A DNA stretch of 64,000 nt from Scenedesmus sp. PABB004 (GCA_014905635.1 JABVCE010000021.1:248001-312000), one strand, 5' to 3'; shown: positions 3,047-28,156, numbered from the stretch's first letter. Notes: generated from the sequence alone by a model not told the origin. A program made the numbers and translations.

Positions 3047-4443
3047 ATGGCCCGCACCACCGCCGTTTGGCTGCTGCTGGCGCTGGCGCTGTCCCTCGCG
3101 GCCGGCGACGAGGCGCCCGGCGGCGCGGCGCCGGGCGGCGCGGCGGCGGGCGGCGCGGCCGTGGCCGGCGCGTACCTTGGCAACGAGGAGCCCACCATCT
3201 GGACGCGCCCCGCCGTGCTGCTCCTGGGCGACAGCCTCACCGAGCTGGGGCTGGACCCCACGGGCGGCTGGGGCGTGAGGCTCGCGCACGCTTATGCGCG
3301 CAAGGTGCGGCGGACGCCCGCCTCCTCTCGCGCGCTCAAGCGCGCCGGCGGCCGCCCGCCCGGCGCGGCGCCGCCGCTGCGGCCCCACGCCGCGGCCGCC
3401 GCGGCGCGCAGGCTGACGTCATCAACCGCGGCTTTGGCGGCTACACCACGCCCACGCTCTCGCTCTCGCTGCCCGAGGTGCTCGCGTCGACGCGGGGGCA
3501 GAAGGTGATGCTCGCCACGCTCTGGCTCGGCGCCAACGACGCCAGCCGCCCCGACCGCGGCAAGTGAGTGGCCGGCCCTGCCCAGCGCCCGCGCGCGCGC
3601 GCGCGCGACCCGGTGGCGGCCCGGCGCCGCGCCACGCCACGCGGCCGCGCCGACCGCGCCGCCGCCGCCGCCCGCTGCGCGCGCAGCGCCGCCGCGGCGG
3701 TGCCGGTGGTCAGCTACGCGGCGCTCCTGGCAAACATGGTGCGGCAGCTGCAGGCCGCGGGCGTGGCCAACGTCGTGCTCATCACGCCCCCGCCGGTGAA
3801 CGAGGCCGCGCCCAAGGCGCTCGGCCCCGGCGAGGTGCGGCGGCGCAGCGGGGCGCGCGGCGCGCCACACCGCGCGCGCACACGCCGCCGTGTGCCGCCG
3901 GCGCCTCACCGCCTCACCGCCGCCGCCGCCGCCGCCGCAGACGCTGCCCGCGCGTACGCGCGACTACACGGCGCAGTACGCCGCCGCGGCGCGCGGCGTC
4001 GCGGCGCAGATGCGCGTGCCGCTGCTCGACGTCGCGGCGCTGTTCGAGGCGACGCCGGGCTGGCAGACGGCGCTGCTCGGCGCCGACGGCCTCCACCTCA
4101 GCCCCGCGGGGCAGAGCCTGGTCTTCTCGTCGCTCATGGGTCTCATCGAGAAGCAGCTGCCGGACGTGCGGTGCGTTCCACGCGGCGCCGCGCTGTGGGC
4201 GACTGCGCTGTCGGCTGCCGCGCTGCGGGCTGCAGCACTGGGTTGTCGCGCGCGCTGACGCCCGAATCTGCCGCGCGGCGCAGGCCGACCGCGCTGCCGT
4301 GGCACCACCCGACGTGGTGGTTCGTGGACTACCAGAACGCGGCCGCGCAGTGGGGCGCCGAGGAGGCCGCATACCGCGCCGCCACGGGCGCGGGCGCGGG
4401 CGCGGGCGGCCGCGCGGTGGCGGCCGCCGCCGGCCGCGACTGA
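3047..4443 (+). CDS. SGNH/GDSL hydrolase, IAH1-like, copy 3 (spliced)
   Basis: Signal peptide MARTTAVWLLLALALSLAAG, then VLLLGDSLTE, DVINRGFGGY, LWLGANDA, DGLHLS; intron positions largely shared with copy 2. Confidence 0.9.
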
Positions 4444-6120: not shown

Positions 6121-8510
6121 GATGGCGGCGATGGCGGAGGTGCCGCAGGCGACCGAGGAGCTACTGGCCGCCTACGCGGCCCGCGTCGCGGGCGGCGGCG
6201 GTCGCGGCCGCGGCGGCGGCAGCGGCGGGGGCGACCCCGCTGCGGTCGCGGCCCTGCTGGCGGCGGGCGCGGACGCCGCAGCGCACGCCGGATACGCCAA
6301 GGGCGGCGGCCCGCTTCCCTTCCAGCACGGCGGCGCGGGATTCGTGGTCGAGCCGGCGCTGCCGCACGCCCTGCACGACCTGCTCGCGCCGCCGGGCGCC
6401 GCCGCGGCCTTCCCGCGCTGGCAGCTCGGCTTCACCGCCCGCAAACACGACACCGACCTGGGGGTCAAGGTGGACAAGCGCGCCGCCGCGCTGGCGCTGC
6501 AGCTGCCAGGCGGCGACCCCGTGCGGCTGGCGCTGGCCTTCACGCAAAACGGCGGCACCGCCCGGCGCGTGGGGCTGGGGCTGCGCCTGATGGTGGAGAC
6601 GGGCTCCATCGAGATCCGCGTGGAGCGCGACGCCGGCGCGCCGCCGCGCCTGCCCACGGCCCGGGCGCGCGTGTGGCGAGCGATCGTGTTCCGCGACGCG
6701 CAGCCGGCTCACGCCAAGCCGTACTGGGAGCGGCGGGAGAAGGAGGGCTGCTGGCGCGGGTGCGTCGCGCTCTACGTCTTTCCCGGCACGCTCGTGGACC
6801 CCGGCAAGCCGCTGCCGGCGCTGCTGCCGCGCGGCGCGGCGGCGCCTCCGGAGCCGCTGGCAGAGCTGCCGCCCGGGCAGGGCGCGGCGGCAGACGGCGG
6901 CGGCGCGCTGGGCGACGGCGGCGCGCTGGGCGACGGCGGCGCGCTGGGCGACGGCGGCGCGCTGGGCGACGGCCGGGCGCCCAGCCCAGACCTGGAGGAC
7001 TGGATCAGCACCCTCGCCGCCTCGCCGCACCTTCCCAGGCTGGACGCTGCGCTCGACGCCTGGCCGCCCCACCCGCCCGGCGCGGCAGCAGAGCCAGGAC
7101 CGGCGCCAGAGCCACTGCAGCAGGCGCCGCCCGCCGGCGGCGAGGAGGAGGACGAGCAGGCGGAGGAGCTCGCGCTGCTGCTGCCGGCGCTGTCGCCGGC
7201 GGCGGGGCCAGGCGCGAGCGGCGCGGCGCCGCCCGGGTCGCCGGCGCGGCGGAGCGCCGCGCAGCGCGCGCTGTCCACCGACGCCGCCCGAATCGGCGCG
7301 GCGCTGCTGGACGCGTGCTCCGGGCTCTGGGGCGCGGCGGTCAGCGCGGAGCAGCTGCGGGCGCAGCTGCTCGCGGCCGCGCGCCACAACGCGGCGGTCG
7401 GAGCTGCGCGGCTCGGCGCGGCGGGCGCGGCGCTGGCAGTCAACCTGCTGCAGCTGCGCGAGCCCTGGCTGAGCCGCACGCTGCTGCACTTGCTGGCCGG
7501 GCAGCAGTCGGCCTGGGAGCCCGCCGGCGTGGCGGCGCCGCCGGGCGCCGCTGCGCCGCTGGGCGGCCTCGTGCCTGTGCAGCCGCTGCCGGCCGACGTG
7601 CGGGTGCAGCTGCTGGGCATGCTGCGGGACGCGGTGACGGAGGGCTGGCCGGCGGACGGCAGCGGCGGCCGCGTCAGCCTCGCCGGCGGGCTGCGGGGCG
7701 CGGCGGCGTGGCGGCGCGCGCTGCGCGCGACCAACGCCAACGGCGCCACGCCCTGGCTCACCGCATGCACGTTTGCGCTGCCCGAGGTCATCGACTGGTT
7801 CCTGCGCGACGCCGGCCTGCGCCTGCGCGACCTGCTCGCGCCCACGCGCCGCGGTGCGGCCCGCGCGCGCGGCCGCTCGACCGGGCCGCGTGCCCCCGCG
7901 CGGCGCGACGCCTCGCTGCTCGCGCGGCCTGACTGCGCAGCCCGCCCCCTGACTCGCCCGCCTGCCCGCCCGCTGCGTGCCCGCTGCCGCGCGCGTCTGG
8001 CCGACGCCGCGTCGCCATCGCCACCGTCGCGCCGGCAGGGCGGCTCGCGTATCACGTCATCACCCGCGAGGCCGCCGAGCGCGCCAAGGGCACGAGCCCG
8101 CGCGGCCGCGACGCGGCGCGCTGCGGCGCCGCGCTCGCCGCGACGCTCGCCGCGCTCGCGGCCCGGCTCGAGGCCGCGGCCGCCGCGACGCTGGGCGCGG
8201 AGGAGCTGCGCGCGCTCGCCGCCGCCGCGGCAGGCGCAGGCGGCGGCGCTGGCGCGCCGGCGGCGCTGGCGCGCGCCGGCGCCAAGCGCCCCGCGCTGGA
8301 GCGCGGCGACGACGGCGACCGCGCCGCCGCGCTGGGCAAGCTGCGTGCCACGGTCGCCGCCGCGCACGGCGGCACGCTGGGCGCGTGGCTCGCGGCGCGG
8401 GGGCGCCACGTGTTCCACACGGCCGCGCCCACGTACGACGTGGCGCTGCTGGAGGCGGTGACGCGGCAGGTGCTGGCGGCCGAGGTGGCGCCCGCGCCGG
8501 CGTGCGCCTG
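6121..8510 (+). CDS. Hypothetical protein with N-terminal globular domain and degenerate ankyrin-like motifs
   Basis: Long coding-like exon from ATG 6121; NANGATPWLTACTFALPEVIDWFL and GRHVFHTAAPTYDVALLEAV resemble ankyrin repeats; probable intron ~7854-8038; stop at 8508-8510. Confidence 0.6.
6893..6972 (+). repeat. 18-bp coding tandem repeat (GDGGAL) x~4
   Basis: ggcgacggcggcgcgctg repeated in tandem. Confidence 0.85.
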
Positions 8511-8630
8511 ACGGCCGAGCGCGACGGCTGGCTGCGGCGGCGGAGCGGTTGCGGCGGGTGGCGGCGGCGGCGGCGCGCGGCGCGCCTACGAATGCACGGT
8601 GGCTTTGCAGCGCTCGTGGGCGCGCTCGAT

Positions 8631-8675
8631 GCGAGGTTGCGCGCAGGTTACGCGAGGCTGTCGACCGGAACGCGG
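8631..8675. repeat. 45-bp perfect inverted repeat, left arm (partner 19008-19052)
   Basis: gcgaggttgcgcgcaggttacgcgaggctgtcgaccggaacgcgg is the exact reverse complement of 19008-19052. Confidence 0.95.
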
Positions 8676-8681
8676 TCACTG

Positions 8682-9101
8682 GGGGCAACGCGGCGCGCGA
8701 AGCGGCGCGTGATGCGGCGGCGCGGCGCGGAGCGCGCTGGCGCGCGCCGGCAGCTGCGGCGCGCGGCCGGCTGGCCCGCGCCGCGCGGTCGCGCCGCCCG
8801 TGGGCACCTGCTTGCTGAGGTCCAGCGCCAGCTTGCGCGCCAGCTCCGCGAGGTGGCTGTCCTTCTCCACCCGCCCCACCAGCAGCACGATCACCGACGC
8901 GCAGCACTCGGCGTCTGCGCGGCGCGGCGGGTGAGCGCGCGCCGGCGCCGCGCCGGCCCTGCTCGCTGCCGCTCGCCGCCGCGCCAGCCCGCGCCGCCCG
9001 CCCCGCGCCCCGCTCGCCGCCGCCGCGCGGCGCACCCTTTTCGCTGGCCTTTGCGAACACCAGGTCCAGGTGGCCGGCCATGCGCTTGATGAGCTCATCC
9101 C
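8682..9101 (-). pseudogene. Captured 420-bp fragment of eIF3m (partial intron-exon-intron-partial exon)
   Basis: Identical by eye to 27249-27668 of the intact eIF3m gene, introns included (DELIKRMAGHLDLVFAKASEK / AECCASVIVLLVGRVEKDSHLAELARKLALDLSKQ). Confidence 0.93.
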
Positions 9102-9569
9102 GCCGAGGCCCCCGCCGTGTGGCTGTAGCGGTCGGTTGCGCCGTCGCCCGGCGGAGCTGCAGCAGGTGCGCGGCGCGCAGGAAGAGCGGCAGCATCGTGG
9201 CAGCCACAACGGAGAGGCGGGGGAGTGGCGGGCGAGGCGGTGGCGCGCCAGCGGTCGGGCGCGCGGCCGGCCGTCACGGCGGCGCAGCGCGCACAACAAT
9301 CGAGGCAACGTCGGATCGCGTGTGCAGTAGCTCGTGCCCCCTCGCTGCCTGCGACGGGTGCGGGATCGAGCGGGCGCGTTGCCGACGCCGGCGCCGCCCG
9401 CCGGCGACGTCGCCGGGTGCCGCTGCCGGCCGCCCACGGCTGCGTGTGCGACCTCTGCGGCGACGACGTGCACCCCGACGCAGAGGTGCGGCCGGGGAGC
9501 GCCGCGGCGGCGGTGGCGCCGGGCACTGCCAATCCCCCCAGCTGCTGGCCCCCCAGCTGCGCCGCGCAC

Positions 9570-9672
9570 CCGCGTTGACGAGCGCGTCGCCGCTCCACGC
9601 CGCGATGTCGCCCTGCGACAGCACGATCAGCGCCTCGCCGTGCTTGTACCACCTCGCGTTGGAGGAGGGCAT
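9570..9672 (-). pseudogene. Isolated first exon of a macro-domain (ADP-ribose binding/hydrolase) gene
   Basis: MPSSNARWYKHGEALIVLSQGDIAAWSGDALVNA followed by a GTGCGC donor; matches the macro-domain GDI...DAxVNA motif; no downstream exons found. Confidence 0.7.
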
Positions 9673-9700
9673 CCTGGCGCCGGGTCCGCGCCCGGGCGCG

Positions 9701-9778
9701 CTGCGGTGGCGGGCGGGCGCGGCTGGAGCGGCGCAGCAGCTGCGGTGGCGGGCGGGCGCGGCTGGAGCGGCGCAGCAG
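9701..9778 (+). repeat. 39-bp tandem duplication
   Basis: ctgcggtggcgggcgggcgcggctggagcggcgcagcag x2. Confidence 0.9.
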
Positions 9779-10312
9779 CGGCGCCGGCGCCCGCCCGCCG
9801 CCGCGCGCCGCCGACGCCGCCGCGCACGCTGTGGCGGTGGCGGTGCGCGACGGGGATGCCCAGGAGGAGGAAAGCAGCGGCGGCAGCCGGGCAACGTCGT
9901 GAGGGGCGGGGCCAACCGCCCTGAACCGCCTGACCGCCCGTGCTCTCGGTGCCCGAACCGCCAGCCCATCTGGCACCAGACCGTGCACGGTGAGAGGCAC
10001 ACGCGGCGGCCACCCGCGCCGGGCGAGAGCCTCCCGCGATGCAAGCTCGTCGATCGCGCGCCAGCACGCGGCGCGCGCGCTGCCGGCAGCCCCGGCCGGC
10101 GCGCGCCGCGATGGTCAGCCTGTGAGGCGCGTGTGTGGTGCGTGCGTCGCGGCGCGTCGGCCATCGCGCGCTCCGCGTCGGGCCCGTTCCGGAAGATTCA
10201 TGCCGCCCGCCCCGCCCCGCCGCGCCCCGCCCCGCCCCGCCCCGCCGCGCCCCGCCCGGCCCTCCTCCTCCCGACAAGCGCCAGGCCCCTGAGGTGGGGC
10301 GCGCTGGGCGCC

Positions 10313-10922
10313 ATGGAGCCGGAGCCGCCGCCGCCGATCGGCGGCGGGCAGCAGGAGGCGCAGCAGCGAGCGCGCGCCGGCGCGCCGGCTCAGGGCGCGC
10401 CCGCCGGCCTTCTCGCGCTGCCGGTGCTGAACTGGGGCGCGCCGCAGCCGGCGGCGCCGGCGCAGCCGCGCCCGCCGCCGGCGGGCGCCGGCTGGCGCCG
10501 CGCGTATCGCGGGCAGGAGGAGGACTGGCTGCAGCCGCCGCCCGCCGCCGCAGCAGCAGCAGCAGCAGCAGCAGCACCAGCACCAGCACCAGCAGCAGCG
10601 CGCGGGCGCGTCGGCGCCGCGGCAGCCGCCCGCTGCCGGCGGCTTCGCGTACCAGGAGGTGGTGCGCGGGCCGGCGCGCCAGGACCTGCCGGGGCACGAC
10701 TGTGCTCAGTGCCGCGACTTCTACGGCGCCCTCTCCACCTGGGGCGCGCCGGCGCCGGGCACCATGATGCTGCTCCCGTGCACGCACGCGCTGGCCCCGG
10801 CCGCGCTGCAGGCCGCGTCGCGGCACCGCGCCAAGCACGCGCCTCCCGAGACCCCGCCGGGGTTTTGGGACATCGGGTTCACGCCCGATGAGCAGGCGGC
10901 GGTGTTTACGCTTGGCGACCCT

Positions 10923-10958
<36 letters not shown>

Positions 10959-12016
10959 GGCGTGCCCGCCCCGTTCGGCGGGCGCAGCCGCAGCCGCAGC
11001 CCGCCGCAGCCGCCGCCGCAGCAGGGGCAGCAACCCAGCGACGCGTCGCCGCCGTGGCGCACCGTGGCGCGCGCGCGCCGCCCCCCCGGCGGCGGCGGCG
11101 GCGGCGGCGGCGGCGCGCTGCCCGCCGCGCGCGGGCCGGGCCCTGGCCGCGCAGCCGCGCTCGGCGGTGGCGGCAGGGGCAGCCCCGGGCCCAGCAGCAG
11201 CAGCGGGAGCGGCAGCGGCAGCGTCAGCGGGAGCGGCTGGCGCGGCGGCAGCCCGGCGCCGCGGCCGGACGACGCGCCGGTGCCGGCGCCGGCGCCGCCG
11301 CCGCCCGTGGCGCCGCAGCAGCGGCAGCCGCCGGCAGCCGCGCCGCGCGGCGCGCCGGCGCCGGCGCCGCCGCCGCCCGTGCCGCCGCCGCTGCAGCGGC
11401 AGCCGCCGGCGGCCGCGCCTGCCCCGTGCGGCGGGCGCAGCCGCAGCCGCAGCCCGCCGCAGCCGCCGCAGCCGCCGCCGCAGCAGGGGCGGCAGCCCAG
11501 CGACGCGGCGGCCGAGTGGCGCACCGTGGCGCGCGAGCGCCGCCCCCCGGCGGCGGCGCGGCGGCGGCGGCGGCGGCGGCGGCGCGCTGCCCGCCGCGCG
11601 CGGGCCGGGCCCTGGCCGCGCAGCCGCGCTCGGCGGTGGCGGCAGGGGCAGCCCCGGGCCCAGCAGCAGCAGCGGGAGCGGCAGCGGCAGCGTCAGCGGG
11701 AGCGGCTGGCGCGGCGGCAGCCCGGCGCCGCGGCCGGACGACGCGCCGGTGCCGGCGCCGGCGCCGCCGCCGCCCGTGGCGCCGCAGCAGCGGCAGCCGC
11801 CGGCAGCCGCGCCGCGCGGCGCGCCGGCGCCGGCGCCGCCGCCGCCCGTGCCGCCGCCGCTGCAGCGGCAGCCGCCGGCGGCCGCGCCTGCCCCGTGCGG
11901 CGGGCGCAGCCGCAGGCGCAGCCCGCCGCAGCCGCCGCAGCCGCCGCCGCAGCAGGGGCGGCAGCCCAGCGACGCGGCGGCCGAGTGGCGCACCGTGGCG
12001 CGCGAGCGCCGCCCCC

Positions 12017-12050
<34 letters not shown>

Positions 12051-15000
12051 GCTGCCCGCCGCGCGCGGGCCGGGCCCTGGCCGCGCAGCCGCGCTCGGCG
12101 GTGGCGGCAGGGGCAGCCCCGGGCCCAGCAGCAGCAGCAGCGGCAGCGGCAGCGTCAGCGGGAGCGGCTGGGGCGGCGGCAGCCCGGCGCTGCGGCTGGA
12201 CGACGCGCCGGTGCCGGCGCCGGCGCCGCCGCCGCCCGTGGCGCCACAGCAGCGGCAGCCGCCGGCGGCCGCGCCGCGCGGCGCGCCGGCGCCGGCGCCG
12301 CCGCCGCCCGTGGCGCCGCAGCAGCGGCAGCCGCCGGCGGCCGCGCCGCGCGGCGCGCCGGCGCCGGCGCCGCCGCCGCCCGTGGCGCCGCAGCAGCGGC
12401 AGCCGCCGGCGGCCGCGCCGCGCGGCGCGCCGGCGCGGGCGCCGCCGAAGCTCATGGCGCCGGCGGGCACGTGCACCGGCGCGCAGCTCGCGCTGCTGAA
12501 GCGCGAGCTGGAGGACAAGGGGTACGCGCTCGTGCACGGCCGCGCCAACGGCCTGTGCGGGTTCTCCCTCATTGCGATTGCCGTGCTGCGCATGCTGGAG
12601 GCGGCGGAGCTGCAGGAGCCGACCCACGACCTGCGCAGTTTCGAACCCGACGTGCTGGACATGTTGGACGAGCAGGCGGGCGAGCTGCGGTCGCGGACGG
12701 TGGAGCTCATCCGCGAGCTGGGCCTGAGCGACCAGCTGCACCCGAGCGGCGTGCCCTGGCGCGATGTGCTCGGCGTGGCCGGCGCGGACGCCGTGGAGGA
12801 GCTGGCGCGAGACCTGGAGGCCGGGGGCTACCCCAGCGAGGCTGAGCTGCGGGCGCTGTGCATGCGCCTGGCAGACTTGGTCTTCCTGACCGACGTCTAC
12901 AGCCCTGACACGCTCCTCATCGCCCTGCAGGAGCAGGGCGACGCGTTCCAGGCGAGCGAGGGCAACCGGCTCGTGGCGCTCGCGCTGCCGGCCGCCGCGG
13001 CGCCGGAGTTTGCGCCCGTGCTCGGGGCGCAAAACCCGCTGCCGCTCAACCACTGGGCGGCGGTGGTGCCGGCACGCAGGCCGCCGCCGCGCGGCGCGCC
13101 GGCGGAGCTGCAGCAGGTGCGCGAGCCGCCGCGCGGCGCGCCGGCGCAGCAGCGGCTGCAGGAGGCGGCGCCGCGCGCCGCGGAGCTCGCCACGGACAGC
13201 AGCGACGAGGAGGGCGGCCCGGCGGCGGGCCAGCCGCGGCAGCCGCTGCAGCCGCTGCAGCCGCTGCAGCCGCTGCAGCCGCAGCAGCTCGGGCGCAAGG
13301 AGCGCCGCGGCAAGGGCAACGGCGCCGCGGCGCCGCTGGGCACCAGCAACAGCGACAGCAGCAGCAGCAGCAGCCGCCGCCGCCGCCGCGCCGCGACCGC
13401 CGCCGCCATCGACGCGGCGTGGGAGAAGCCGGTGGAGCGCCGCGCGGAGCTCGACGCGTCCAAGGCGCGCGCCGAGGCGGCCGGGCCGTCCGACGAGGAC
13501 GTGCGGCGCTCCAAGCAGCGCGCGAGCTACGACGCCAAGCACGCGCGCCGCGGCGGCGGCGCCAGCGGCGGCGGCCAGAGCGGCCAGAGCGGCGCGCGCA
13601 GTGGCAGCGTCAGCGGCGGCGGCACGAGCCGCGCGCGCAGCGACAGCGCCGGCGGCAGCGCCGGCAGCAGCACCGGCGGCGGCACGAGCGGCGCGCGCAG
13701 CGGCGGGGGCACCCCGGGCCCCCCGCCCGCGCGCGGCATCGACCCCGCCGAGCGCGCGGCGCAGCCCGTGAGCGGCGCCGACTGGGAGGCGCTGCGCCGC
13801 CACGCGCAGGCCCGCGGCGAGGCCGCCCGCGCGGCGGCGATGGCGGCGGTGCTCTCGGCGCCCGCCGCCAGCGTCGGCTGGTCCGCCGGCAGCGCCGCGG
13901 CCAGCAGCGATGAGGAGGAGGGCGGCCCGGCGGCGAAGCGCGCGCGCGGCGCCGACGCGGCGCAGCGCCGCAGCCGCGGCCGCGGCCGCGCGCGCTCGCG
14001 CGGCAGCGCCAAGGCCGCGACGCGCGGCGGCCGCACGCCCTCGCGCGGCGGCGGCCGCGCGCGCTCGCGCGGCGGCGCGGCGGCGGCGCCGCGCGGCCGC
14101 CGCAAGCGCTCACGCGGCGCCGACGAGGCGTCGGGGCGTGCCTCGCCCGCGCGCGGTGCAGCGGCGGCCGAGGCGGGCGACAAGGCAGGGCGGCAGCAGC
14201 AGCAGGCGCTGCCGCGCCACTTCACCAAGCGCAGCGAGAAACGGACCGAGCAGGCCAAAAAGGCAGCGGCCGGCTCTGGCATGCGTGAGTGTGCCCGCCG
14301 CGCGGCGCGCTGCCGGGCCGCCGGGCCGCTCTCTCGGCACCCAGCGCCGCCGCCGCCCCGCGCCCTGCCCGCGCCCCCCTCACCTGCCCTCGCCCGCCCG
14401 CCCGCCCGCCCGCCTCAGGCGTGCGCGTCTGCGCGCTGCGCGGCGCCGTGCGCAAGCCAGAGGTGGTCCCCTACCTCGAGGCGCTCGTGTGCGCCTACAG
14501 CCGGCTGGGCATCCTCGGCCGCGACGCGCACCACGTGGCGCTCGTGTATGGGGCGAGGTGCGCGCGCGCGCGGGTGGGGCGCGCCCGCGCGCTTTGCGCC
14601 CCCTCCTCCGCGCCGCCCGCCGAGTCGCGCCGCCCGCCCGCCCGCCCGCCCGCTGCGCAGCCGGCTGTACGGGCTGGACACGCGCCAGCCGCCGCCGCAG
14701 CCGGCGGCGCAGGAGCAGGGCCCGCAGCAGCAGCAGCCCCCGCCCGCAGCGCCGCCAGCCCAGCAGCCGGCGCCGCCGCCGCCCGCGTGCGCCTGCTACC
14801 TGCAGGCCGCGTGCGGCGGCGCGCCGCTCGTGTACGACCTGATGAACTTTTTTAGCCAGGGCAACTGGCGGCGACACGGCACCGGCCTGTCCAGCGACCT
14901 GCGCCACGCGCTGGAGCAGGCCTGCGGCGTCAACGAGCTGCAGCGCGTGCCCCTGCCGGCCTGGGTGACCGGAACCCTGCACCACCACCTGCTCAACCCT

Positions 15001-16705
15001 CTCGCGGAGCTGTACAACACCAACATGCAGCTCCACCTCGCTGACGGCCAGCGCCTGGAGAAGGCGCTCGACGCCGCCGCCCTGCAGGCGTGGTTTGCCG
15101 CGGGCTGCGCCGGCACGCCCAGCCGCGCCGCGCGCGACTGCCTCATCGCCGGCGGCGCGGCGCTGCTGTACAGCGCGTCGCCGCTGCTCTGGGAGCGCCA
15201 GGGCGTGCTGCAGCCGGGCGAGGGCGTGGTGCCCGCGGCGGCGGGCGACGGCCAGGACGCCGGCCGGCTGCGGCTGGCCATGGCGATGATGCGCGACATG
15301 CTCGCGCAGATGCGCCTGCACCTGGAGCAGCCCTACCCGGCGGCGGCGGACGGCGAGGCGCGCGCGCCCGCGGCCGGCGCGGCGCGCACGCGCCAGGCGG
15401 CAGGGGCGCAGGCGACGCCCAGCCTGCAGCGCTGGGAGTCGGACGAGGCCGCCGGCAAGCACGGCCGCGTGCTCGACTGGGCGCGGAGCGGCATGCCGCG
15501 CGCGCCGGACGCGGGCGCGCAGGCAGGGGGCGCGCCGCTCGTGCCGCAGCCGCCGGAGCCGCTGGCGCACGGCGCGGGCGCGGCGGCGCGGCAGCAGCAC
15601 GACGCGGCCTACGACGCCTGGCGCGCGGCGCTGGCCCGGCAGCTCGAGGGCCTGGCGTACCGGGAGGGCGACGCCGACGCCATGGCGCGCCGCGTCGCGC
15701 GCGACTTTGTCGTCATGCTCGGCCAGCAGCACATGTTTGCTGCCTGCGCGCCGCGGCTCGCGGACTCGCTGGCAGCCCAGCAGGGCGCGGCGGCGCGGCC
15801 GGCGCTGGAGGCGATGCTGCGCCGCGCCGCGTCGCTCGGGGCGGCCCCGGAGCCGGCGTCGGCCGGCGCGCTCGCGGCGGCCGTCGAGTCGCTGGCAGAG
15901 GCGCTGGACGGCAGCAGCGGGGGCAGCGGCAGCGGCAGCAGCAGCAGCAGCCGCAGCCGCGGCCAGCGTCCGCCGGCGCCCCCCAAGCTGCTGGACGCCA
16001 GCGCCCAGGAGCCGCGCCTGCGCGAGCTGCAGCGGGCGCGCGAGCTGGGCAAGCTCGAGGCGGCGGTGCAGCGCCTGCGCGCCGCCGTGGATGCCAGCGA
16101 GGCGGCCGTGCGTCTGCGCAAGGAACCCCTCAAGGGCCTGCAGCGGGAGGTCGCCGGCGCTACGGTCCCTGATCGCCACGCCCGCAACCGGCTGCGCCGC
16201 CTGCAGCGCAAGGACGCGCACGCGGCGGCGCTCCGGCGCCGGCTGGCCGTAGAGGAGGCGCGGCTGCTCCGCGCCCGGGGGCAAGGCGCCGCGCCGGGCG
16301 CGGCGCCGGGCCAGGGCCGGGCGCGGCGCTGCCGGCCGCGGCCGCGGAGCGGCTGCGGCTGGCGCTGGCCGCGCTGACCGCCGCCGGCGACGCGACGGTG
16401 GGGGCCGACCTCGCAGCCGTGGAGGCGGAGTGGCAGGCTGCCATGGCGCAGCACCACGAGCGCGACGCGGCGCTCGTGCAGCACCAGCGGGCCCTCGCGC
16501 GACCGCACGGCGCGGCGGTGGCGCCCGACGCGGACGCGGCCCGCCGCGCGGCGGACGCCGCGCGCGCCGCGCGCGACCAGGGCGCGCGGCTGCTGGGCGA
16601 CTGCGGCGCCCGACTGGCGGCCGCGCGCGGCCACCTGGCGGCCGCGCGCGGCCACCTGGCCGCCGCAGCGGCCGCGCAGGGTCGCGCTGCGCCGGCGCCG
16701 CCGGC

Positions 16706-16756
<51 letters not shown>

Positions 16757-18569
16757 GCGCGCGCCGCGCACGCCCGAGGAGGCGGCGGCGGCTGTCGCGG
16801 CGCTGCGTCGCGATGTCTCGGCCGGCTGGCGCCACGCGGTGTGCGCGACGCTCGAGGCGGTGCTGGCTGCGGCGACCGCCGCCGGCGCGGCGCCGGCGCC
16901 GCCCGGCGGCCGCAGCGGCGGCGCGCAGCCGCCGCAGCGCGCCGGCGGCGCGGGGCAGCACCCCGACGCGCTCGTCGCGGTCACGGGCGCGTGCAAGGTG
17001 CTGCGCGGCCTGCGCTCGCGGCACGCCGCGCGCGTGGCGCTGCCCAAGCGGCGCGCCTTCACGCTGGCGCCGGTGCCCAAGTACGGCACCCAGCACCTGC
17101 ACCTGTCCACCTCGGGCATGCAGGCGCTGGACGCAGCGCTGCGCGCGCGCCAGGCCAGGGCGCCCGCGGGGGGCCAGCCGGCAGGCCAGCCGCCGCCGCC
17201 GCCGCCGCCGCCACCGCCGACCCAAGAGGGCGGGGGCTACGATCCCGTTTGGGATGCATATTTTGATTTTGGCCGGCGCCCCGGGCGCGCGCGCGGCGTG
17301 CTGCACGCCAACACGCGCTTCGCGGGCTCTGTGACGTTTGATCTGGCGGCGCTGCACGTGCGCGTGCGCGTTGAGGGCGCCGCCGACCCCGCCCCGCGCC
17401 GCGGCCAGCAGTCGCGCGCCGCCAAGGCGGCGCAGCGCGCGGCAGAGCACCGCGCGGGCGTGGAGGCAGCGCGGCGGCTGCTCTGCGACGCGCTGGCGCC
17501 GCACGGCGTGGCCGACGAGGCGGCGCTCGACGCGCTGCCGCTCGACCCGTGCGAGCTGCGCGGCGTGGAGGGCCTGCCGCCGGGGCACGCGCTGCGCGGC
17601 GCGGCCGCGGCCGTGCACGCGGGCGTGCGCATAGTTGGAATCGACCCGGGCCGGGCGCGCATGATATGCGCCGCGACTTGGCGGCAGGGCCCGGGCTGCA
17701 CGCGCGTCGCGCACCGCCGCATCGCGCAGCGGCGCTGCCCCAACGCGCCGCGCCACCGCGGCGACCACGGCCGCCGCTACGAGGCGGAGCGCATCATCCG
17801 AATAAAGACCGCCGCGCACCGCGACTCGCGCGGGATCGAGCGGCACAGCCTGTGGCAGCAGGGGCGGCCGGGGCGGCCGGGGCGGTACGACCGCCGCCCG
17901 CCCGGCGGCGGCGACTGCGTGCATGCCTGCCTGAACCGCGTGCCTGCCTACTCGGGCACGAGCGTCGCCGCCGCCGGGGCGTGGCGCAACGGCCGGGTGC
18001 ATCATGTGTTGGACAATGCATTCGCATATAGCTTGCTTGCGTGCCGTGCAGAGTGTGCGTGGCGGCTGCGGAAGCACGGGCTGAAGCAGCGCGCGCTGCA
18101 TGCGGCGATTCAGTTGACTGCATACGGCCGGGTCTTTGTGCGCGGGCGCGTCCGGCAGCACGCGCGCCTGCCCGCCGACCTGCCCGCGGTGGTGCTGGGC
18201 ATCGGGGACGCCAGCCTGGGCATGGGGGGCTGCATCTCGGGGCCGGGGCCGCCGCGGCAGGCGCTGCTGGCGCTGCTGCGCACTTATTATGCGCGCCGGC
18301 GCGTCGCCGCGGTGCTCATGGACGAGCACCGCACGAGCGTCACCTGCTCGGTCTGCGGGGCGCGCATGGAGAAGCTGCGGGGGATTTACGGTCTGCTACA
18401 GTGCCCCGGGTGCACGGTCGTCGCGCCGCGCGACGACAACGCGGCGCGCAACATCTGCGCGCTCACGCTGCACGAGTTGCTGCGCGGCGGCCGCGGCACG
18501 GCGGGCGGCGCGCGCCTCGCCGGCGCGTTCCGGCAGGCGGCCGCCGCCGCGGTGGACCCCCCGGCGTGA
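10313..18569 (+). CDS. Giant Fanzor1 (TnpB-like RNA-guided nuclease) fusion: CtIP/Sae2-C, Pro-rich repeats, OTU-like, Fanzor REC/WED/RuvC/ZnF (~2,670 aa after indel correction)
   Basis: gccATGg at 10313. Introns 14285-14418 and 14558-14660 (GT-AG, phase-consistent). Indels at ~10541, ~11545-11560 and ~16317 are needed to join the frames. Fanzor1-like motifs LAELYNTNMQLHL, FTLAPVP, VWDAYFDF, FAGSVTFD; RuvC-I IVGIDPG, VVLGIGD, MDEHRTSVTCSVCG...CPGC...RDDNAARNI. Confidence 0.7.
10644..10880 (+). other. CtIP/Sae2/Com1 C-terminal (SAE2) domain
   Basis: FAYQEVVRGPARQDLPGHDCAQCRDFY...ASRHRAKHAPPETPPGFWDIGF carries the YxEVVR, CxxC, RHR and TPxGFW signature of the CtIP C-terminus. Confidence 0.9.
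10977..12437 (+). repeat. Three ~455-540 bp coding tandem repeats with nested 72-bp (PAPAPPPPVAPQQRQPPAAAPRGA) units
   Basis: Units start at ~10977, ~11430 and ~11899 (GGRSRSRSPPQ...WRTVAR...GRGSPGPSSSS...RPDDAPVPAP); near-identical DNA. Confidence 0.9.
12520..13070 (+). other. OTU-like cysteine protease domain
   Basis: GYALVHGRANGLCGFSLIA (Cys codon 12556) ...ELRSRTVELI... NHWAAVVP (His codon 13051) resembles the OTU xGDGNCxFxA ... HY/W motifs. Confidence 0.55.
17625..18456 (+). other. Fanzor/TnpB RuvC nuclease plus C4 zinc finger, catalytic residues intact
   Basis: Asp at 17643 (GIDPG), Glu at 18324 (DEHRTS, the ZnF-proximal position typical of Fanzor1), CxxC...CxxC, Asp at 18432 (RDDNAARNI). 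Confidence 0.93.
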
Positions 18570-18990
18570 GCGGCGTGTGCGGTGCGCTGCGCTCTCCGTC
18601 CTGGGCAGGACGTTAAAAGGCCTCTTGCTGTTGTGTTGTGTTGCCAGGTTAGGTCAGGCGTGTGCGCGTGCGTTTCTCGCCTTGTCACCCGTTCCGGGTG
18701 GGGGGGACCCCTCGCGGGGCACCGACCTGCGGGCCGGTCCCAAACCGTCATGCCTCGCGCCGCTGTGGCCTGTTTCAGGCGGCCGGCGATCAGAGGATGC
18801 CCATGGTCGGTGTTGGCGGCGGCGGCGCGCGCGCGCGGCGGTGGCAGCGCCGCGCACGCGCGCCGCGCGCCCGCGGCGCCGGGGCGCCCCCCGGGGCGCC
18901 CCGGCAGCCCCCATCCCCCCAGCCGCCGGTGTTGAGACCACCGGCCGGCGCTCCCACGGCGGTAGCGAGGCCGGGGAGCACGCCCAGGCG
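18459..18990 (+). ncRNA. Putative omegaRNA scaffold / element right end (5' boundary uncertain)
   Basis: Lies over and downstream of the Fanzor stop, is retained almost unchanged in the non-autonomous copy, and has terminal hairpins at 18925-18945 and 18947-18984. TnpB/Fanzor omegaRNAs are known to derive from the right end. Confidence 0.6.
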
Positions 18991-19007
18991 CGGTCACTCT
19001 GCATCGC

Positions 19008-19052
19008 CCGCGTTCCGGTCGACAGCCTCGCGTAACCTGCGCGCAACCTCGC
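19008..19052. repeat. 45-bp perfect inverted repeat, right arm (partner 8631-8675)
   Basis: ccgcgttccggtcgacagcctcgcgtaacctgcgcgcaacctcgc. Confidence 0.95.
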
Positions 19053-19227
19053 CCGCGCTCCCCGCCCCGCACTCCCCCGGTCCGCCGCGCCGGTCTCACC
19101 GACTCGTCTCTCCGCCCAGCGCACGCAGCCGCGCCCGCCGCGCCGCCCGCGCCCGCCAGCCCGCGCGCGAGCTGCTCGCGGGGCGTTGCCGCTCGTGGGG
19201 CGGCCGCAGCTCGTCGAATTGCTCGCC

Positions 19228-20973
19228 ATGGGCAACCCTGAGGTCTCCGACGTCTCGATTGCGGTCGGCGACCCGCCGGGCGGCCTCGGCGATGCCGAGG
19301 CGGCGGCCGCCGTCAAGCCGGCCGCCGCGGCGCGGCCGGGCCTCTGCAAGCGCGTGCTGCGCTACGCCCTGGAGCAGTGGTGAGTGGGCGTTCCCCCCAG
19401 CTCGGCTGCGGGCGCCTCGGCCGCCTCGGCGCGCCCAGCGGCCGCCGCGCCGCGCAGCGCCGCCCGCCTGGCGCCAGCCGCGCCCGGTGCACGCCCGACC
19501 GCCCGCCCGCCCGACCGCCCGCCGCCGCGCCAGGTTCATCCTGGGCCTGGGCGTCGTCATCGGCTTTGCCGCGGCGGTGCCGCGCCTCGGCGCGACGGGC
19601 GGGTGGCTGCGCGCCGAGTACAGCATCAAGCTGCCGGCGATCGTGCTCATCTTCGTAATCAGCGGCCTTGGCCTCAAGACCAAGGCCCTGCTCGGCGCGG
19701 CGGGCGACGTGCGCCTGCACGCGCTCGTGCAGGGCCTCTCGCTCGGCGCGCTGCCCGCGCTCGGCGCCGCCGTCGCGGCGGGGCTGCGGTCGGCGGGGTT
19801 CAACCCGCCGCTGTGCGACGGGCTCGTGATCATGGCGTCCATGCCGACCACGGTGTCGACCAACGTCGTCTACACCGCGCGCGCGGCGGGCAACGAGCCC
19901 GCCGCGCTCGTCAACGCGGTGCTCGGCAACATCCTAGGCATCTTCATCACCCCCCTCTGGCTGCAGCACTTCCTGGACGTCTCCGGCGCCGCGCCCTACG
20001 CGGCGGTGCTGGTGGAGCTGAGCTACACCATCATCGCCCCGCTCCTCGTCGGCCAGGCGCTGCAGTACGGCGCGCCGCGCGCGGTGCGGCGCGGCGGCGG
20101 CTGGGCGTGGCGCGGCGGCGGCGGCGGCGGCGGCGCGCAGCCTGCGCGCAGCCTGCGCGCAGCGGCGGCGGCTGAGCGCGGCACGGCGCGCAGCCTGCGC
20201 GCCCGCCCATGCTCGCCCGCACGCGCTCGCCCGCGCGCGCCCGCCCACGCTCGCCCGCCCCGCTCTCGCAGGTCGCGTGGATCAAGGCGCACATCAACAC
20301 GGCCAACGTCTCGTCCGCCTGCATCCTCGCGCTCGTGTGGCTCACGTTCTGCAACACCTTTTCCAACGGCGCCGCGCGCAAGGTCCCCGGCGGCGACGTC
20401 GCCGCGATGGTCGCGCTCAACGTCGCGCTCTTCGCCGCCTTTGCGGCGCTCTCCTTCCTCGTCGCGTGGCCGCCGCCGCCGCTGCGCTGGGTGCGGCGCC
20501 TGCTGCGCGTGCGCCGCCCCGACGCGGTCGCGGTCGTCATCTGCGGGTCGACCAAGACCGTCGCGCTGGGTGTGCCGCTCATCAACGTCATGTACGGCAA
20601 CGTCCCCACCGCGGGGCTGCTCGCGATGCCGCTCATCATCTACCACGCCCTCCAGGTCCTCCTCGGCGGCCTGCTCATCGCGCCGCTGCGCGCTTGGTGC
20701 CTCGCGGCGCCGCCGCCAGCTGCAGAGGAGGGGGAGCACGCCGGCGCGGCGCGCGGCGCCGCGAGCGCGTCGTCGCGGCGCTGGAGCCTCATGGCGCTGC
20801 TGCTGCCGGGCGGGCGCAGCAGCCAAGCGGACCTGGGGCCGCGCCCAGGGCCGCGCCCAGGGCACCACCAGGGGCACCAGGAGCAGCAGCACCAGGAGCA
20901 GCAGCCGCAGCACCACCAGGAGCAGCAGCCGCAGCACCACCACCAAGAGCAGCCGGCCGCGCTGCCGCGCTGA
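19228..20973 (+). CDS. Sodium/bile-acid cotransporter 7-like (SLC10A7/SBF-like) membrane protein, 3 exons
   Basis: EQWFILGLGVVI, IVLIFVISGLGLKT, MASMPTTVSTNVVYT, NAVLGNILGIFITP, VICGSTKTVALGVPLI, PLIIYHALQ. Confidence 0.9.
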
Positions 20974-21212
20974 GTGCGACCACGCGGCTGGGCGGTGGGG
21001 CGGTGTAATTGCAGCCCAGGACGCGGCCGCCGCCGGCGGCTGGGGGGCGCGGGCGAGCCCCCGCGCGCGCGAGCTGCGCGCCGCGACCGCCGGCGGCGGC
21101 GCGGCGCGCGCAGGGACGGGCGCGGGCCGGCGCGCGTCACACGTGCGACGTCGGAGGCCGGCGATCGGGGGCGCGCCCGCCACGTTCCGCGCGAGGCGAG
21201 CAAGTTAGGTGC

Positions 21213-21975
21213 TGCCGCGGCGCGGCGCGGAGCGCGCTGGCGCGCGCCGGCAGCTGCGGCGCGCGGCCGGCTGGCCCGCGCCGCGCGGTCGCGCCGCCCG
21301 TGGGCACCTGCTTGCTGAGGTCCAGCGCCAGCTTGCGCGCCAGCTCCGCGAGGTGGCTGTCCTTCTCCACCCGCCCCACCAGCAGCACGATCACCGACGC
21401 GCAGCACTCGGCGTCTGCGCGGCGCGGCGGGTGAGCGCGCGCCGGCGCTGACCCTGCACGAGTTGCTGCCCGGCGGCCGCGGCACGGCCGGCGGCGCGCG
21501 CCTCGCCGGCGCGTTCCGGCAGGCGGCCGCCGCCGCGGTGGACCCCCCGGCGTGAGCGGCGTGTGCGGTGCGCTGCGCTCTCCGTCCTGGGCAGGACGTT
21601 AAAAGGCCTCTTGCTGTTGTGTTGTGTTGCCAGGTTAGGTCAGGCGTGTGCGCGTGCGTTTCTCGCCTTGTCACCCGTTCCGGGTGGGGGGACCCCTCGC
21701 GGGGCACCGACCTGCGGGCCGGTCCCAAACCGTCATGCCTCGCGCCGCTGTGGCCTGTTTCAGGCGGCCGGCGATCAGAGGATGCCCATGGTCGGTGTTG
21801 GCGGCGGCGGCGCGCGCGCGCGGCGGTGGCAGCGCCGCGCACGCGCGCCGCGCGCCCGCGGCGCCGGGGCGCCCCCCGGGGCGCCCCGGCAGCCCCCATC
21901 CCCCCAGCCGCCGGTGTTGAGACCACCGGCCGGCGCTCCCACGGCGGTAGCGAGGCCGGGGAGCACGCCCAGGCG
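21213..21975 (+). mobile_element. Non-autonomous internally deleted derivative of the Fanzor element (763 bp)
   Basis: 21213-21448 matches 8713-8948 (eIF3m-derived left end), joined through a gcgc microhomology to 21445-21975, which matches 18459-18990. Flanked by direct repeat agcaagttaggtgc (21199-21212 and 21976-21989). Confidence 0.92.
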
Positions 21976-22174
21976 AGCAAGTTAGGTGCGCTCCTTGCTC
22001 GCCCCCAGGGCCCTCCGCTGCCGCCCCCCAGACCCGAGAGTCCGACGCGCCCCTCGCCGCAGTCGACTGCCGCCCGCGCGCCCCCAAAGCACTCACGGCG
22101 AACGCTCGCGCGCTGCGGTGCCCGTGAGTCCATGGCCGCGTGACCTGCGCGTCGCACCGATCAGAGACCGCGCC

Positions 22175-25502: not shown

Positions 25503-28156
25503 TCAGTGCACCGCCTGCGGCGCGCGCGGCGCGCCTCGGCTGCCCTTGGCCGCCAGCGTCTCGCCCGCCGCCGCGAGCGCGTCGCGCAGCGCGCCGAGCT
25601 GCTGCCCGAGGCCCGCCCACTCGTTGGAGGTGAAGGTGCGGTGGTGCACGCGCGACACGGTCACGCGCGACGCGACCTGGTCGATGCGCGCGTCGATGAG
25701 CTTGGCGCCGATCGCACGCACCAGCCACGGCTGGACCTGGCGGCCGCGGCGGGCGCGGGCGGGCGGGTCGGCAGGCGCGGCGGGCGCGGCGGGCGCGGCG
25801 GGCGGCGCGGGCGGGCGGCCGCGGCGCGGCGCCGTGCGGCGAGGCGCGCGCACCTGCTCCGCGGGGATGTCCAGCGCCGCCTGCACCTCGGCGAGGGGCA
25901 CGGCGGCGCCGTTGGCGCGGCCGCCGAGCACGAGCAGGGCGAGCATGCGCGTCTTGTCGGTCGCCGCCTCGGCCGTCACGCCCACCGCCTCCAGCACCGC
26001 GGGCGTCGCCGCGGCCTTGAAGCCTGCGCGGCAGGGCAGGGCGCGGGGCAAGCGCGTCGCTGCGGCCGCGCGAGCGCAGCCGCGGCGGCGGCGGCGGCGG
26101 GCGGGTGGGCGCGCGCCCCTTCCCGCGCGCCGCCGCCCCGCGCACCCGGCAGGTCGCCGCGCAGCATCGTGTCCAGCAGCTGCAGCAGCGGCGCGGTCGC
26201 AGCATCGCGGCCGAGCTGCGTGACCGCGGGCAGCTCCCAAAAGTCGCACTGGAAGGCGTCGGGGCTGCGCACAAACGCCTTGACCGCCTCCGCGGCAAAC
26301 GGCTTCACCTGCAAGGGCGGGCGGGCGCGCGCGGCGCGCGCAGAGCGCGTGAGCGCGCCGCGCCGCGCGGGCGAGCGCGCCGGCGGCGGGCGGGCGGGCG
26401 GGCGGGCGGGCGGGCGGGCGGGCGGGCGGGCGGGCACGCCGCGGCCGCACCTTGGCGAGGTCGGCGCCGTCCGTCGCCAGCGCCAGCGCGGCGCCCAGCA
26501 GGCGCAGGTACTCCTTGCCTGCCGCGCGGTCGCCCACGACCTGTGGCGCGGGCGCAGGGCGCAGGGTGCGGGCGCGCGGGGGCGCGGGCGCGTGGGCGGG
26601 CGGGCAGCGCGGGAGCCGCGCGGCACACGCGCGGCGATGACGGCGCAAGACGCGCAGCGCGCCGCCGCGCGCGGCGACAGGGCGGGGCGGGGCCTCGGGC
26701 GTTTGCTCTCATCACTGGCGGGCTCAAACAATGTAGATAAGGATGTTTGGCTGTTGGATCGTCACCGGCCGGCGCAACAGCACGGCAAGGCACGCACGCA
26801 AGCACAGCAAGCACGGGCCGCGCCGCGGCGGGCGCTACGCAGCGCACGGCGCACCTTCATGAGGGACGCCAGCTGGAGGTGCAGCTCGATGGCCATGCTG
26901 GGCTTCAGCCCCCACACGCGCCGCCACTCGTCGGCCTTGCCCTGCGCAGGCGGCGGCGCTGGCACGTCGGCGGCGCGGCGACGCGCAGGGGCGCGCCACC
27001 AGCAGCAGCAGCAGCAGCAGCAGCGGCAGCAGCAGCAGCAGCGGCGGCAGCAGCGGCGGCGGCGGGCGGCGCGCCTTGACGACGGGCGCGAGCAGCGCGG
27101 CGAGGCTCTTGCTCTGCTTGGCAAACTCCAGCGCCTGCAGCAGCACCACGTAGCGCGCCGGCGCGGTGCCGACGTTGCTGTACAGCCCCAGCAGCGCGTT
27201 GAGCTTCACCTCGCCCATCACCTCGGGCTGCGCGGCGCAGTGCGGCGCGGGGCAACGCGGCGCGCGAAGCGGCGCGTGATGCGGCGGCGCGGCGCGGAGC
27301 GCGCTGGCGCGCGCCGGCAGCTGCGGCGCGCGGCCGGCTGGCCCGCGCCGCGCGGTCGCGCCGCCCGTGGGCACCTGCTTGCTGAGGTCCAGCGCCAGCT
27401 TGCGCGCCAGCTCCGCGAGGTGGCTGTCCTTCTCCACCCGCCCCACCAGCAGCACGATCACCGACGCGCAGCACTCGGCGTCTGCGCGGCGCGGCGGGTG
27501 AGCGCGCGCCGGCGCCGCGCCGGCCCTGCTCGCTGCCGCTCGCCGCCGCGCCAGCCCGCGCCGCCCGCCCCGCGCCCCGCTCGCCGCCGCCGCGCGGCGC
27601 ACCCTTTTCGCTGGCCTTTGCGAACACCAGGTCCAGGTGGCCGGCCATGCGCTTGATGAGCTCATCCCAGCGGCCCTCGCCCGCGAGGGCGGTGCACTCA
27701 GCCACGAACTTGGAGCCCGCCGTGTCTGCGAGCGCCGTCTTGCCGCCCTGCGGCGCGCGCGCGGAGCAGCAGCGGCGGCGCCCGCCGGCGCGTCGGGCGC
27801 AGCGCGGCGCGCGCCGGCGCCGGGCGCGGCGGGGCAGGCTGCCGCGCGGCCCCGGCCGGGCCGCGGCGCCTGGCGGGCCCGGGGCGCGCCGCTGCTGCTG
27901 CGGCAGCCGGCGGCCAATCATCACGCGCCGCCCCGGCGCCAGGGGCGGGCCGCCCGCGGCCGGGCCGGGGGCACTGGCCACCACGGCGCCCGGGGGCGCG
28001 TCGATCGTGCGGCCGCGGGCCTCCAGCGCGGGCGGGGCGGTTGCGCGGCGCGCCCGCCATTCAGCGCACCGCGCCCTCGTCCAGCAGGCCCCCGATGTGC
28101 CGCGCGACCGCGATGTGGCTGTCCTCCTCCACCGTCTCAACCAGGTGGATCGTCAT
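25503..28156 (-). CDS. EIF3M: Eukaryotic translation initiation factor 3 subunit M (PCI domain), spliced
   Basis: MTIHLVETVEED...; KTRMLALLVLG; VQPWLVRAIGAKLIDARIDQVASRVTVSRVHHRTFTSNEWAGL is a PCI C-terminus typical of eIF3m. Confidence 0.85.

Follow-up and report, generated by a model that had tools for sequence, protein, structure and literature searches.

The closest described counterparts of the locus treated here are the Chlamydomonas Fanzor1 families CRe-1, CRe-2 and CRe-3. They have been interpreted as non-autonomous Helitron2 elements that move by one-ended rolling-circle transposition: their 3′ ends are intact, copies are often truncated at the 5′ end or internally deleted, the duplications measure about 7-19 bp, and extra sequence has occasionally been captured on the 5′ side (Bao and Jurka 2013, PMC3627910); all six Fanzor copies of C. 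reinhardtii lie in Helitron 2 elements, and small RNAs map to their conserved 3′ untranslated region (Jiang et al., PMC10530073). In a 64-kb stretch of DNA from Scenedesmus sp. PABB004 (64,000 nt, GCA_014905635.1 JABVCE010000021.1:248001-312000; the whole of which we call the window), there is an element of 10.3 kb that carries both a Fanzor/TnpB-like nuclease gene and the C-terminal domain of the resection-promoting protein CtIP/Sae2. An original prediction, made from this DNA alone, had joined the two into a single CtIP-OTU-Fanzor protein, a reading against which our evidence leans. On balance we favor an alternative in which the element is a non-autonomous, Helitron2-like carrier of Fanzor1 that has serially captured host fragments at its 5′ end, the CtIP C-terminal domain among them, and whose own gene probably begins at the ATG at 12454; the CtIP piece would then not normally be translated together with the nuclease.

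The element resembles CRe-1/2/3 (CrFNuc in PMC10530073) in having a spliced Fanzor gene, no transposase of its own, and a conserved and precise 3′ end with a likely guide RNA, as well as ragged 5′ ends, an internal-deletion derivative, captured host sequence at the 5′ end and duplications of variable length (7-19 bp in CRe; 9 and 15-19 bp in the present element). At 10.3 kb it is far longer, however, and it contains a 1.5-kb tandem array, a possible OTU-like N-terminal region and the CtIP domain, features that do not appear in the CRe descriptions consulted; moreover, neither a T-rich target nor an asymmetric terminal inverted repeat was found. The likeness is one of insertion signatures. Among Helitron-like elements more generally, the accessible portions of two surveys (PMC4067079; HELIANO, PMC11417382) list OTU, RPA and endonuclease as recurrent passenger domains, with OTU in the Helitron2/Helentron branch, and describe host gene pieces carried in either orientation, as we find here. 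SAE2/CtIP does not figure in those portions, and the OTU of the present element is only a lead. In agreement with the original prediction, which knew of no Fanzor with this architecture, the literature searched holds no description of CtIP and Fanzor in one element, or of Fanzor with Sae2; a paper containing both Fanzor and CtIP appears, by its title, to be a review of genome engineering, and the pairings of Fanzor with OTU and of Helitron with CtIP returned only papers that appear unrelated, as judged from their titles and abstracts.

The mobile unit was defined by self-comparison of the window (self-BLAST) together with alignments, and the 9-bp duplication at its two ends (Table 1) bears out the claim that the CtIP piece and the nuclease lie inside one duplication-bounded element. 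The full-length copy is inserted in the loop, of about 13 nt, of a perfect 45-bp palindrome in the target DNA, which could be a hairpin-forming target favored by single-strand (HUH-type) machinery or the ends of an older foldback element. A second copy lies 2.2 kb away, has its own duplication and has undergone an internal deletion of about 9.5 kb, leaving 235 bp of a captured 5′ piece joined to the final ~36 nuclease codons and the entire 3′ untranslated end; it appears to be a hitch-hiker of the element family that has kept only the putative guide RNA. Between these two insertions the 3′ ends are identical and the 5′ starts differ by 28 bp, and the bases before the 5′ duplications read CCGGAAC in one and CCGCGCG in the other. 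A generic scan for terminal inverted repeats of the element gave low-complexity pairs only; captured DNA may cover the original 5′ terminus. When a 30-nt stretch of the 3′ end was compared with genome contigs, there were no matches.

That this element captures host DNA can be observed directly. Its 5′ end coincides with the start of homology to an eIF3m-like locus, part of which has been copied into the element in antisense, as an exon, an intron and an exon, from a resident gene 18 kb away that is its likely source, and which is also carried by the second copy. In the resident gene at 27 kb, coding exons run on past both homology breakpoints, each of which falls inside an exon, and the downstream exons have eIF3 subunit M as their sole PDB match (E = 0.007) and match Pfam PCI (E = 0.005). 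A coding-like island farther along, at 9500-9650, is probably another captured antisense exon; it may be macro-domain-like, with no match in Pfam or PDB. The 5′ 1.6 kb of the element is demonstrably a patchwork of captured host DNA, and therefore gene-fragment capture offers an economical origin for the CtIP piece as well, which would be the last coding part of a host gene, taken up in sense orientation.

The CtIP/Sae2 assignment of the original prediction stands. The domain matches Pfam SAE2 (PF08573) with E = 4.5e-8 in the long open reading frame (ORF) and with E = 3e-13 (51.2 bits; cutoff 19.8) when the 117 aa are isolated, and the CxxC, SRHR and TP..FW motifs by which it resembles host CtIP/Sae2/Ctp1/COM1 are all present. 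A database search recovered eight longer relatives with 37-46% identity, all of which bear PF08573 alone, and an alignment with seven of the eight shows invariant columns at V, R, R, L, C..C, SRHRA, P, TP, W and D. The seven aligned homologues stop 5-50 residues past the FW..GF motif, whereas frame 3 of the window has no stop until 12845 (about 1.9 kb), so the earlier observation that the piece runs beyond the point where host CtIP proteins end is also upheld. Unlike the host proteins, the piece consists of the C-terminal domain only, is not followed by a stop, does not form an extreme C-terminus and belongs to a mobile element, not to a gene of its own. Upstream, at most about 110 residues, low in complexity and unrelated to CtIP, precede the SAE2 domain; CtIP proteins normally require an N-terminal oligomerisation region. 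The prediction had also placed a good ATG some 110 codons before the domain: there is indeed an ATG at 10313, in a Kozak-like GCC-ATG-G context, but this lies in frame 2 and needs an intron or an indel to reach frame 3. Either of the alternatives given in Table 1 for 10424-10553 links the two frames, and the C-rich tract before the AG of the candidate intron resembles those of the two confident introns farther downstream.

At the base composition of this locus, the presence of an ORF cannot show whether the CtIP piece and the nuclease belong to one reading frame: GC content per 2-kb segment is 0.73-0.85 across the whole 64 kb (0.85 at 10-12 kb), and stop-to-stop ORFs of hundreds of codons occur in all six frames of the window. 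Because the DNA is about 80% GC and every frame is open, the length and continuity of ORFs carry no evidential weight, and our conclusions are drawn instead from matches to profiles, statistics of codon positions, repeats and comparisons with other sequences. Codon usage was scored as log-odds trained on the confidently coding parts and used beside the GC content of codon positions (GC3-GC2); a codon-usage scan of the whole window could not tell the strands apart and was not used for picking genes.

Along the element, these measures give a weak frame-2 signal at 10320-10440, a clear frame-3 signal at 10560-10900, none at 10920-12400 and a frame-1 signal from about 12420; downstream, the exon at 14419-14557 reads in frame 3, after which frame 1 holds as far as about 16300 and frame 3 from there to the stop. 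The silent interval is occupied by a tandem array, whose landmarks at 11055, 11517 and 11986 are 462 and 469 nt apart and in which the codon-usage signal is absent in every frame and on both strands. The Pro-rich repeats of the original prediction thus exist, but as a DNA tandem array without a codon-usage signature. Substitutions between the units number five non-synonymous to two synonymous (a hand count on the unit alignment, and a tiny sample). At the far side of the array the signal resumes abruptly, with GC3-GC2 of 0.4-0.58 from 12440 and log-odds of 0.4-0.7 from 12420, in frame 1 and strong to about 13250; it is at just this point, where the array ends, that the ATG at 12454 stands.

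A single protein would, in addition, need at least two frame repairs that introns do not explain, at ~11540-11560 and ~16300. The first is in the second array unit, which has C6 where units 1 and 3 have C7 and a GC inserted in its (GGC)n tract, for a net shift of +1; the second is a change from frame 1 to frame 3 in a GC-rich repeat, for which enumeration of possible introns near 16317 returned only weak GT..AG pairs, none of them credible, and which is either an assembly indel or a real frameshift. As to the three indel sites named in the prediction, the breaks are real (10424-10553, ~11540-11560 and ~16290-16330), although the first may be an intron. Nor could the array simply be spliced out, since no donor of the form GT[GA][ACT][GA] is present in 10861-11200. 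With its frame interrupted, its middle portion lacking codon-usage signal and an ATG standing where coding resumes, a single CtIP-OTU-Fanzor protein is not demonstrated by this sequence.

Downstream of the array, removal of the two canonical introns restores frame 1 and gives a spliced translation free of stops, which indicates that the OTU-like region, the linker and the nuclease very probably form one spliced gene; the codon signal is weak in the linker up to 14284. The identity of the first of these regions is less clear, and the OTU-like domain of the original prediction did not gain confirmation. The region from 12454 to 13107 has no Pfam match at E<=5 and no PDB sequence match at E<=10; its single-sequence AlphaFold model (pLDDT 42.5) is unusable, being too poor for a fold search. 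The NGLCGFS and NHW motifs were read by eye in the translation, and an ESM Atlas feature search returned an OTU-bearing set at 0.90 (16 of 30 matches; 34% of the members in the listed cluster carry OTU), so that the assignment is only a lead. The large helical region that follows has no Pfam match above noise, and its segment 14857-16290 no usable match in the ESM Atlas.

The original prediction was right that the nuclease gene is spliced and that both its zinc finger and its RuvC D/E/D triad are intact. An alignment with the three best relatives shows D139, E366, C373/C376 and R401-D402 to be invariant, and the order D...[TS][TS]..CxxC...CxxC..RD is present, giving the RuvC triad and a C4 zinc finger; the alignment over 17229-18566 contains no gap that calls for an intron, and no stop interrupts the core between about 16331 and 18569. 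When 1.84 billion representatives were searched exhaustively with HMMER, the nuclease had 36 relatives, all of 632 aa or less (best, P0009: E = 4.8e-20, 38% identity, 627 aa); the eight that were scanned all match the TNB family, and the closest ones, P0009, P0012 and P0023, are on contigs of 2-8.5 kb. Contigs from two metagenome runs hold a variant copy of 17853-18748 with 16 differences; 15 codons are changed, 11 of them synonymously and four by conservative non-synonymous replacement, a ratio indicating that the nuclease family is under purifying selection. Contigs of runs X5 and X7 join 18429 to 18532, with 102 nt of the C-terminal tail replaced by nine other letters; other copies or strains thus have a shorter nuclease tail.

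The 3′ end probably supplies the guide RNA. The second copy has preserved, at 99% identity, the last ~100 nt of the ORF along with the following 420 nt, and the 420 nt fold with z = -3.08, none of 100 shuffled sequences being as stable. A search of Rfam over 8000-22500 gave no match at the gathering score; five matches to microRNAs or small RNAs were at chance level (E 0.21-0.71), none of them within 18570-18989.

Independent DNA bearing on the locus came from contigs of four metagenome runs (freshwater or sludge) from three studies. Contigs of runs X1 and X2, both from one study, are identical to the window over 10611-10912, and an X1 contig covers 12416-13094 with one difference. Because such contigs match the CtIP, OTU-like and nuclease segments exactly or nearly so, these segments can be taken as real and, within the covered parts, the assembly as accurate. 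An X5 contig lacks one base at 13751, in the frame-1 linker; either strains vary here or the copy in the window has one more indel. Some contigs were joined to the window in other arrangements, including one of 8785 to 12485; we treated these joints as repeat artefacts, their sides being mostly 20-23 nt and many of high depth, although two had longer sides, of 30 and 252 nt. Finally, an 811-bp X1 contig matches 10269-10399 exactly and 10000-10198 loosely (11 differences and 14 gaps), with about 400 nt that depart from the window upstream of 10000; it may represent another locus, such as a host CtIP gene or another copy of the element, whose sequence departs from the window shortly before the CtIP piece.

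These contigs also speak to the possibility that the arrangement was produced by the assembly, through a chimeric join or through collapse or expansion of a repeat in a long-read assembly of 80% GC. Such an error might be suspected from an array and frame breaks in sequence that is hard to assemble; but a clean 9-bp duplication bounds the whole 10.3-kb unit, which in turn lies within a perfect palindrome of 45 bp, the second insertion bears the same two ends, and the CtIP, OTU-like and nuclease segments recur in independent contigs (the copy number of the repeat could still be wrong). We regard this explanation of the locus as very improbable.

The proposal of a true fusion deserves closer consideration. 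On that proposal, active copies of the element would produce a single mRNA for the CtIP domain, the Pro-rich repeats, the OTU, the linker and Fanzor, and the protein would tether stimulation of Mre11-Rad50 to its own cut and so steer repair toward homologous recombination, or homing; the breaks would then have arisen either as indels of the assembly, in simple repeats rich in GC, or by mutation in the very recent past. Fusions of Cas9 with CtIP have been engineered to raise homology-directed repair (HDR); these are laboratory constructs using N-terminal CtIP fragments. They would share with the proposed fusion, in principle, the pairing of a programmable nuclease with a resection-promoting part of CtIP. 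The 9-bp duplication leaves the 3′ flank of the element matching the empty allele, which fits the homing logic of TnpB, and the two clean introns mark the long frame-1 ORF as a real spliced gene. All three breaks, furthermore, are in homopolymer or short-repeat tracts of the kind in which indel errors are typical, and these sites (~10541, 11540-11560 and 16213-16340) are spanned by none of the 32 contig pieces among the matches listed.

Several other observations, some of which are direct arguments for a fusion, weigh against the account that we favor. The CtIP piece is in sense orientation and has kept every conserved residue; its similarity to CtIP ends within about ten codons of the stops of its homologues and yet there is no stop codon, and a breakpoint so near the ends of the homologues would be unlikely for random capture. 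The well-placed ATG at 10313 has a possible clean intron leading into the CtIP frame. Once the lesion in unit 2 is discounted, the frames of the CtIP piece, the repeat peptide and the OTU-like region coincide, for which the chance is about one in three, and wherever else lengths differ within the array (by 462, 72, 3 and 9 nt), the difference is divisible by three, albeit in trinucleotide contexts. The codon test cannot distinguish low-complexity coding sequence from non-coding sequence; a weak signal is likewise obtained from the probably coding linker at 13500-14280. With regard to the Helitron2 affiliation, it rests on the signatures of two insertions: inverted matches to the 3′ end were limited to low-complexity 11-mers, and no asymmetric terminal inverted repeat was identified; the T-rich target reported for CRe elements is absent at both insertions, T runs being rare at 80% GC; and no transposase or Rep/helicase (Helitron_like_N, PIF1) was found among the 88 ORFs of at least 300 aa in the window outside the element, a set that also contained no second SAE2 or TnpB.

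We take the missing stop above all, and with it the sense orientation, the intact motifs and the coinciding frames, to be real arguments for a fusion. Against them are set the absence from the array of any codon-usage signal or sign of purifying selection, the sharp onset of coding signal at the ATG at 12454, the captured, non-functional antisense host fragments that adjoin the CtIP piece in the 5′ part, the want of a consensus donor by which the array could be removed and the apparent lack of the N-terminal oligomerisation region. The assembly, moreover, is not generally error-prone, since among the matches listed the identical contig pieces contain no indels. Searches of protein databases and metagenome contigs for relatives with this architecture found none: the CtIP domain gave none of 88 candidates among proteins of similar length, the OTU-like region none of 8000 among longer proteins, and the nuclease relatives show no such architecture. 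In the metagenome contigs, none of 594 pattern matches to the CtIP domain was confirmed; the nuclease was represented there by 75 distant loci that match its zinc-finger end only, none of which has CtIP-, OTU- or N-terminal-like sequence at E<=1e-3, and it was not found in prokaryote genome contigs or viral contigs. Taking both sides together, we judge a fused protein to be unlikely.

It is also conceivable that the CtIP piece acts as a separate accessory gene, expressed alone as a truncated protein or within a chimeric non-coding transcript, and modulates resection in trans as a dominant negative or a helper. Helitron-type elements often express captured fragments, as titles and abstracts suggest, and the piece has an ATG in a Kozak-like context, a coding signal confined to 10320-10900 and an intact SAE2 domain. 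Its translation would, however, meet no in-frame stop until 12845 and would thereby acquire a long repeat-derived tail, and TGTAA, a polyadenylation-type signal of algae, is nowhere in the element (all five matches in the window lie outside it), which together render an accessory gene quite improbable.

The course of events that we consider best suited to these observations, namely serial capture by a Helitron2-like element, can be outlined as follows. The core gene would be spliced and start at the ATG at 12454, encoding the OTU-like region, the charged linker, the helical region and a TnpB-type nuclease with RuvC and zinc-finger motifs. Lacking its own machinery, the element would be moved in trans by a Rep/helicase encoded elsewhere, and its one-ended movement would account for a precise 3′ end, a ragged 5′ end, duplications of variable length and the pick-up of flanking host DNA at the 5′ side. 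Repeated capture might then have built the 5′ patchwork, with an antisense piece of eIF3m, another antisense exon and the sense end of CtIP, which the 1.5-kb tandem array would separate from the core gene.

Table 1. Features of the element, of its second copy and of the adjoining target DNA (positions in the 64-kb window)
Feature	Position	Strand	Basis or remark
Inverted repeat in target DNA, 45 bp, perfect	8631..8675 vs 19008..19052		self-BLAST 100%
Target-site duplication, left, 9 bp, GCGGTCACT	8672..8680	+	exact position search
Element copy 1, full-length, 10,309 bp	8681..18989	+	precise 3′ end ...GAGCACGCCCAGGC, common to copy 2
Captured eIF3m-like fragment, exon-intron-exon	8682..9116	-	98.9% identity over 435 bp to 27249-27681
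Coding-like island, ...EALIVLSQGDIAAWSGDALVNAG...	9500..9650	-	GC3 0.94-0.96 at one codon phase; reads best on minus strand
ATG (GCC-ATG-G) followed by 37 frame-2 codons; perhaps first exon of CtIP piece	10313..10423	+	weak frame-2 codon signal 10320-10440
GT..AG intron, 130 nt (CCG/GTGCTG ... CCGCCGCAG/CAG), or coding with 1-nt indel near 10541	10424..10553	+	GT..AG enumeration
CtIP/Sae2 C-terminal domain, FAYQEVVRG...CAQC...SRHRAKHAPPETPPGFWDIGFTPDEQ, frame 3	10644..10895	+	Pfam SAE2 PF08573
Tandem array, 462-469-bp unit, period 469, 3.2 copies, 93% matches	10928..12406	+	Tandem Repeats Finder (TRF)
72-bp sub-repeats (24 codons, PPPPVAPQQRQPPAAAPRGAPAPA), 3.5 copies, 96% identity	12213..12462	+	within and after last array unit, up to ATG 12454
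ATG and OTU-like region, frame 1; NGLCGFS with Cys at 12556-12558, NHW near end	12454..13107	+	translation, coding signal
Charged low-complexity linker, S/G/R-rich, KRARG- and RRKRSRG-type basic patches, frame 1	13108..14284	+	ends at GTGAGT donor
Intron, GTGAGT..CAG, 134 nt	14285..14418	+	canonical
Exon, frame 3	14419..14557	+	coding signal
Intron, GTGCGC..CAG, 103 nt	14558..14660	+	canonical
Large helical region, frame 1	14661..16300	+	coding signal; upstream of nuclease core
Break from frame 1 to frame 3 in GC-rich 12-nt repeat	16290..16330	+	three-frame display
Fanzor/TnpB-like nuclease core, frame 3, TGA at 18567-18569	16331..18569	+	Pfam Cas12f1-like_TNB E=1.2e-9
RuvC and zinc-finger residues	D139 17643; E366 18324 (DEHRTS); C373/C376 18345/18354; R401-D402 18432 (RDDNAARN 18429-18452)	+	alignment
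3′ untranslated end, candidate guide-RNA (omega/fRNA) region	18570..18989	+	subterminal hairpin 18922-18949
Target-site duplication, right, 9 bp, GCGGTCACT	18990..18998	+	exact position search
Copy 2, internal-deletion derivative, 762 bp	21213..21974	+	= [8709-8943]+[18462-18989], 99-100% identity
Copy 2 direct repeat, 15-19 bp	21194/21198-21212 and 21971/21975-21989	flanking	own duplication of copy 2
Resident eIF3m-like host gene, part; likely source of 5′ fragment	27249..27681	-	self-BLAST, alignment

Beyond the element, the window contains several other recognizable features. An SBF-like transporter gene (Pfam SBF_like, E = 2.6e-47) occupies 19400-21010 on the same strand as the element, a few hundred bases past its 3′ end, with a TGTAA at 21004, near the end of the gene. 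The start of a CBM_20 starch-binding domain is at ~22860-22945 (E = 3.2e-6) and a dual-specificity phosphatase domain at ~45940-46120 (E = 4.6e-16), both in host genes that would suit a plant- or alga-like organism making starch. Self-BLAST also revealed a direct repeat of about 700 bp with 70% identity (1620-2316 vs 3390-4123).

Bacterial TnpB, a relative of Fanzor, restores its element by cutting the emptied site, after which homologous repair takes place. If the fusion were true, the Scenedesmus element, by bringing a resection-promoting domain to its own cut, would give a first indication from nature that Fanzor elements influence which repair pathway is chosen; a rolling-circle transposon would then carry a naturally occurring and self-contained module for homing or gene drive, which would also offer a ready-made design for HDR-biased editing tools. 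If CtIP is only cargo, as we favor, the element provides a clear example, outside Chlamydomonas, of Fanzor1 on a Helitron2-like element, and its locus shows one-ended insertion with a fuzzy 5′ end, the serial capture of host fragments and a 762-bp derivative that has retained little beyond the putative guide-RNA end.

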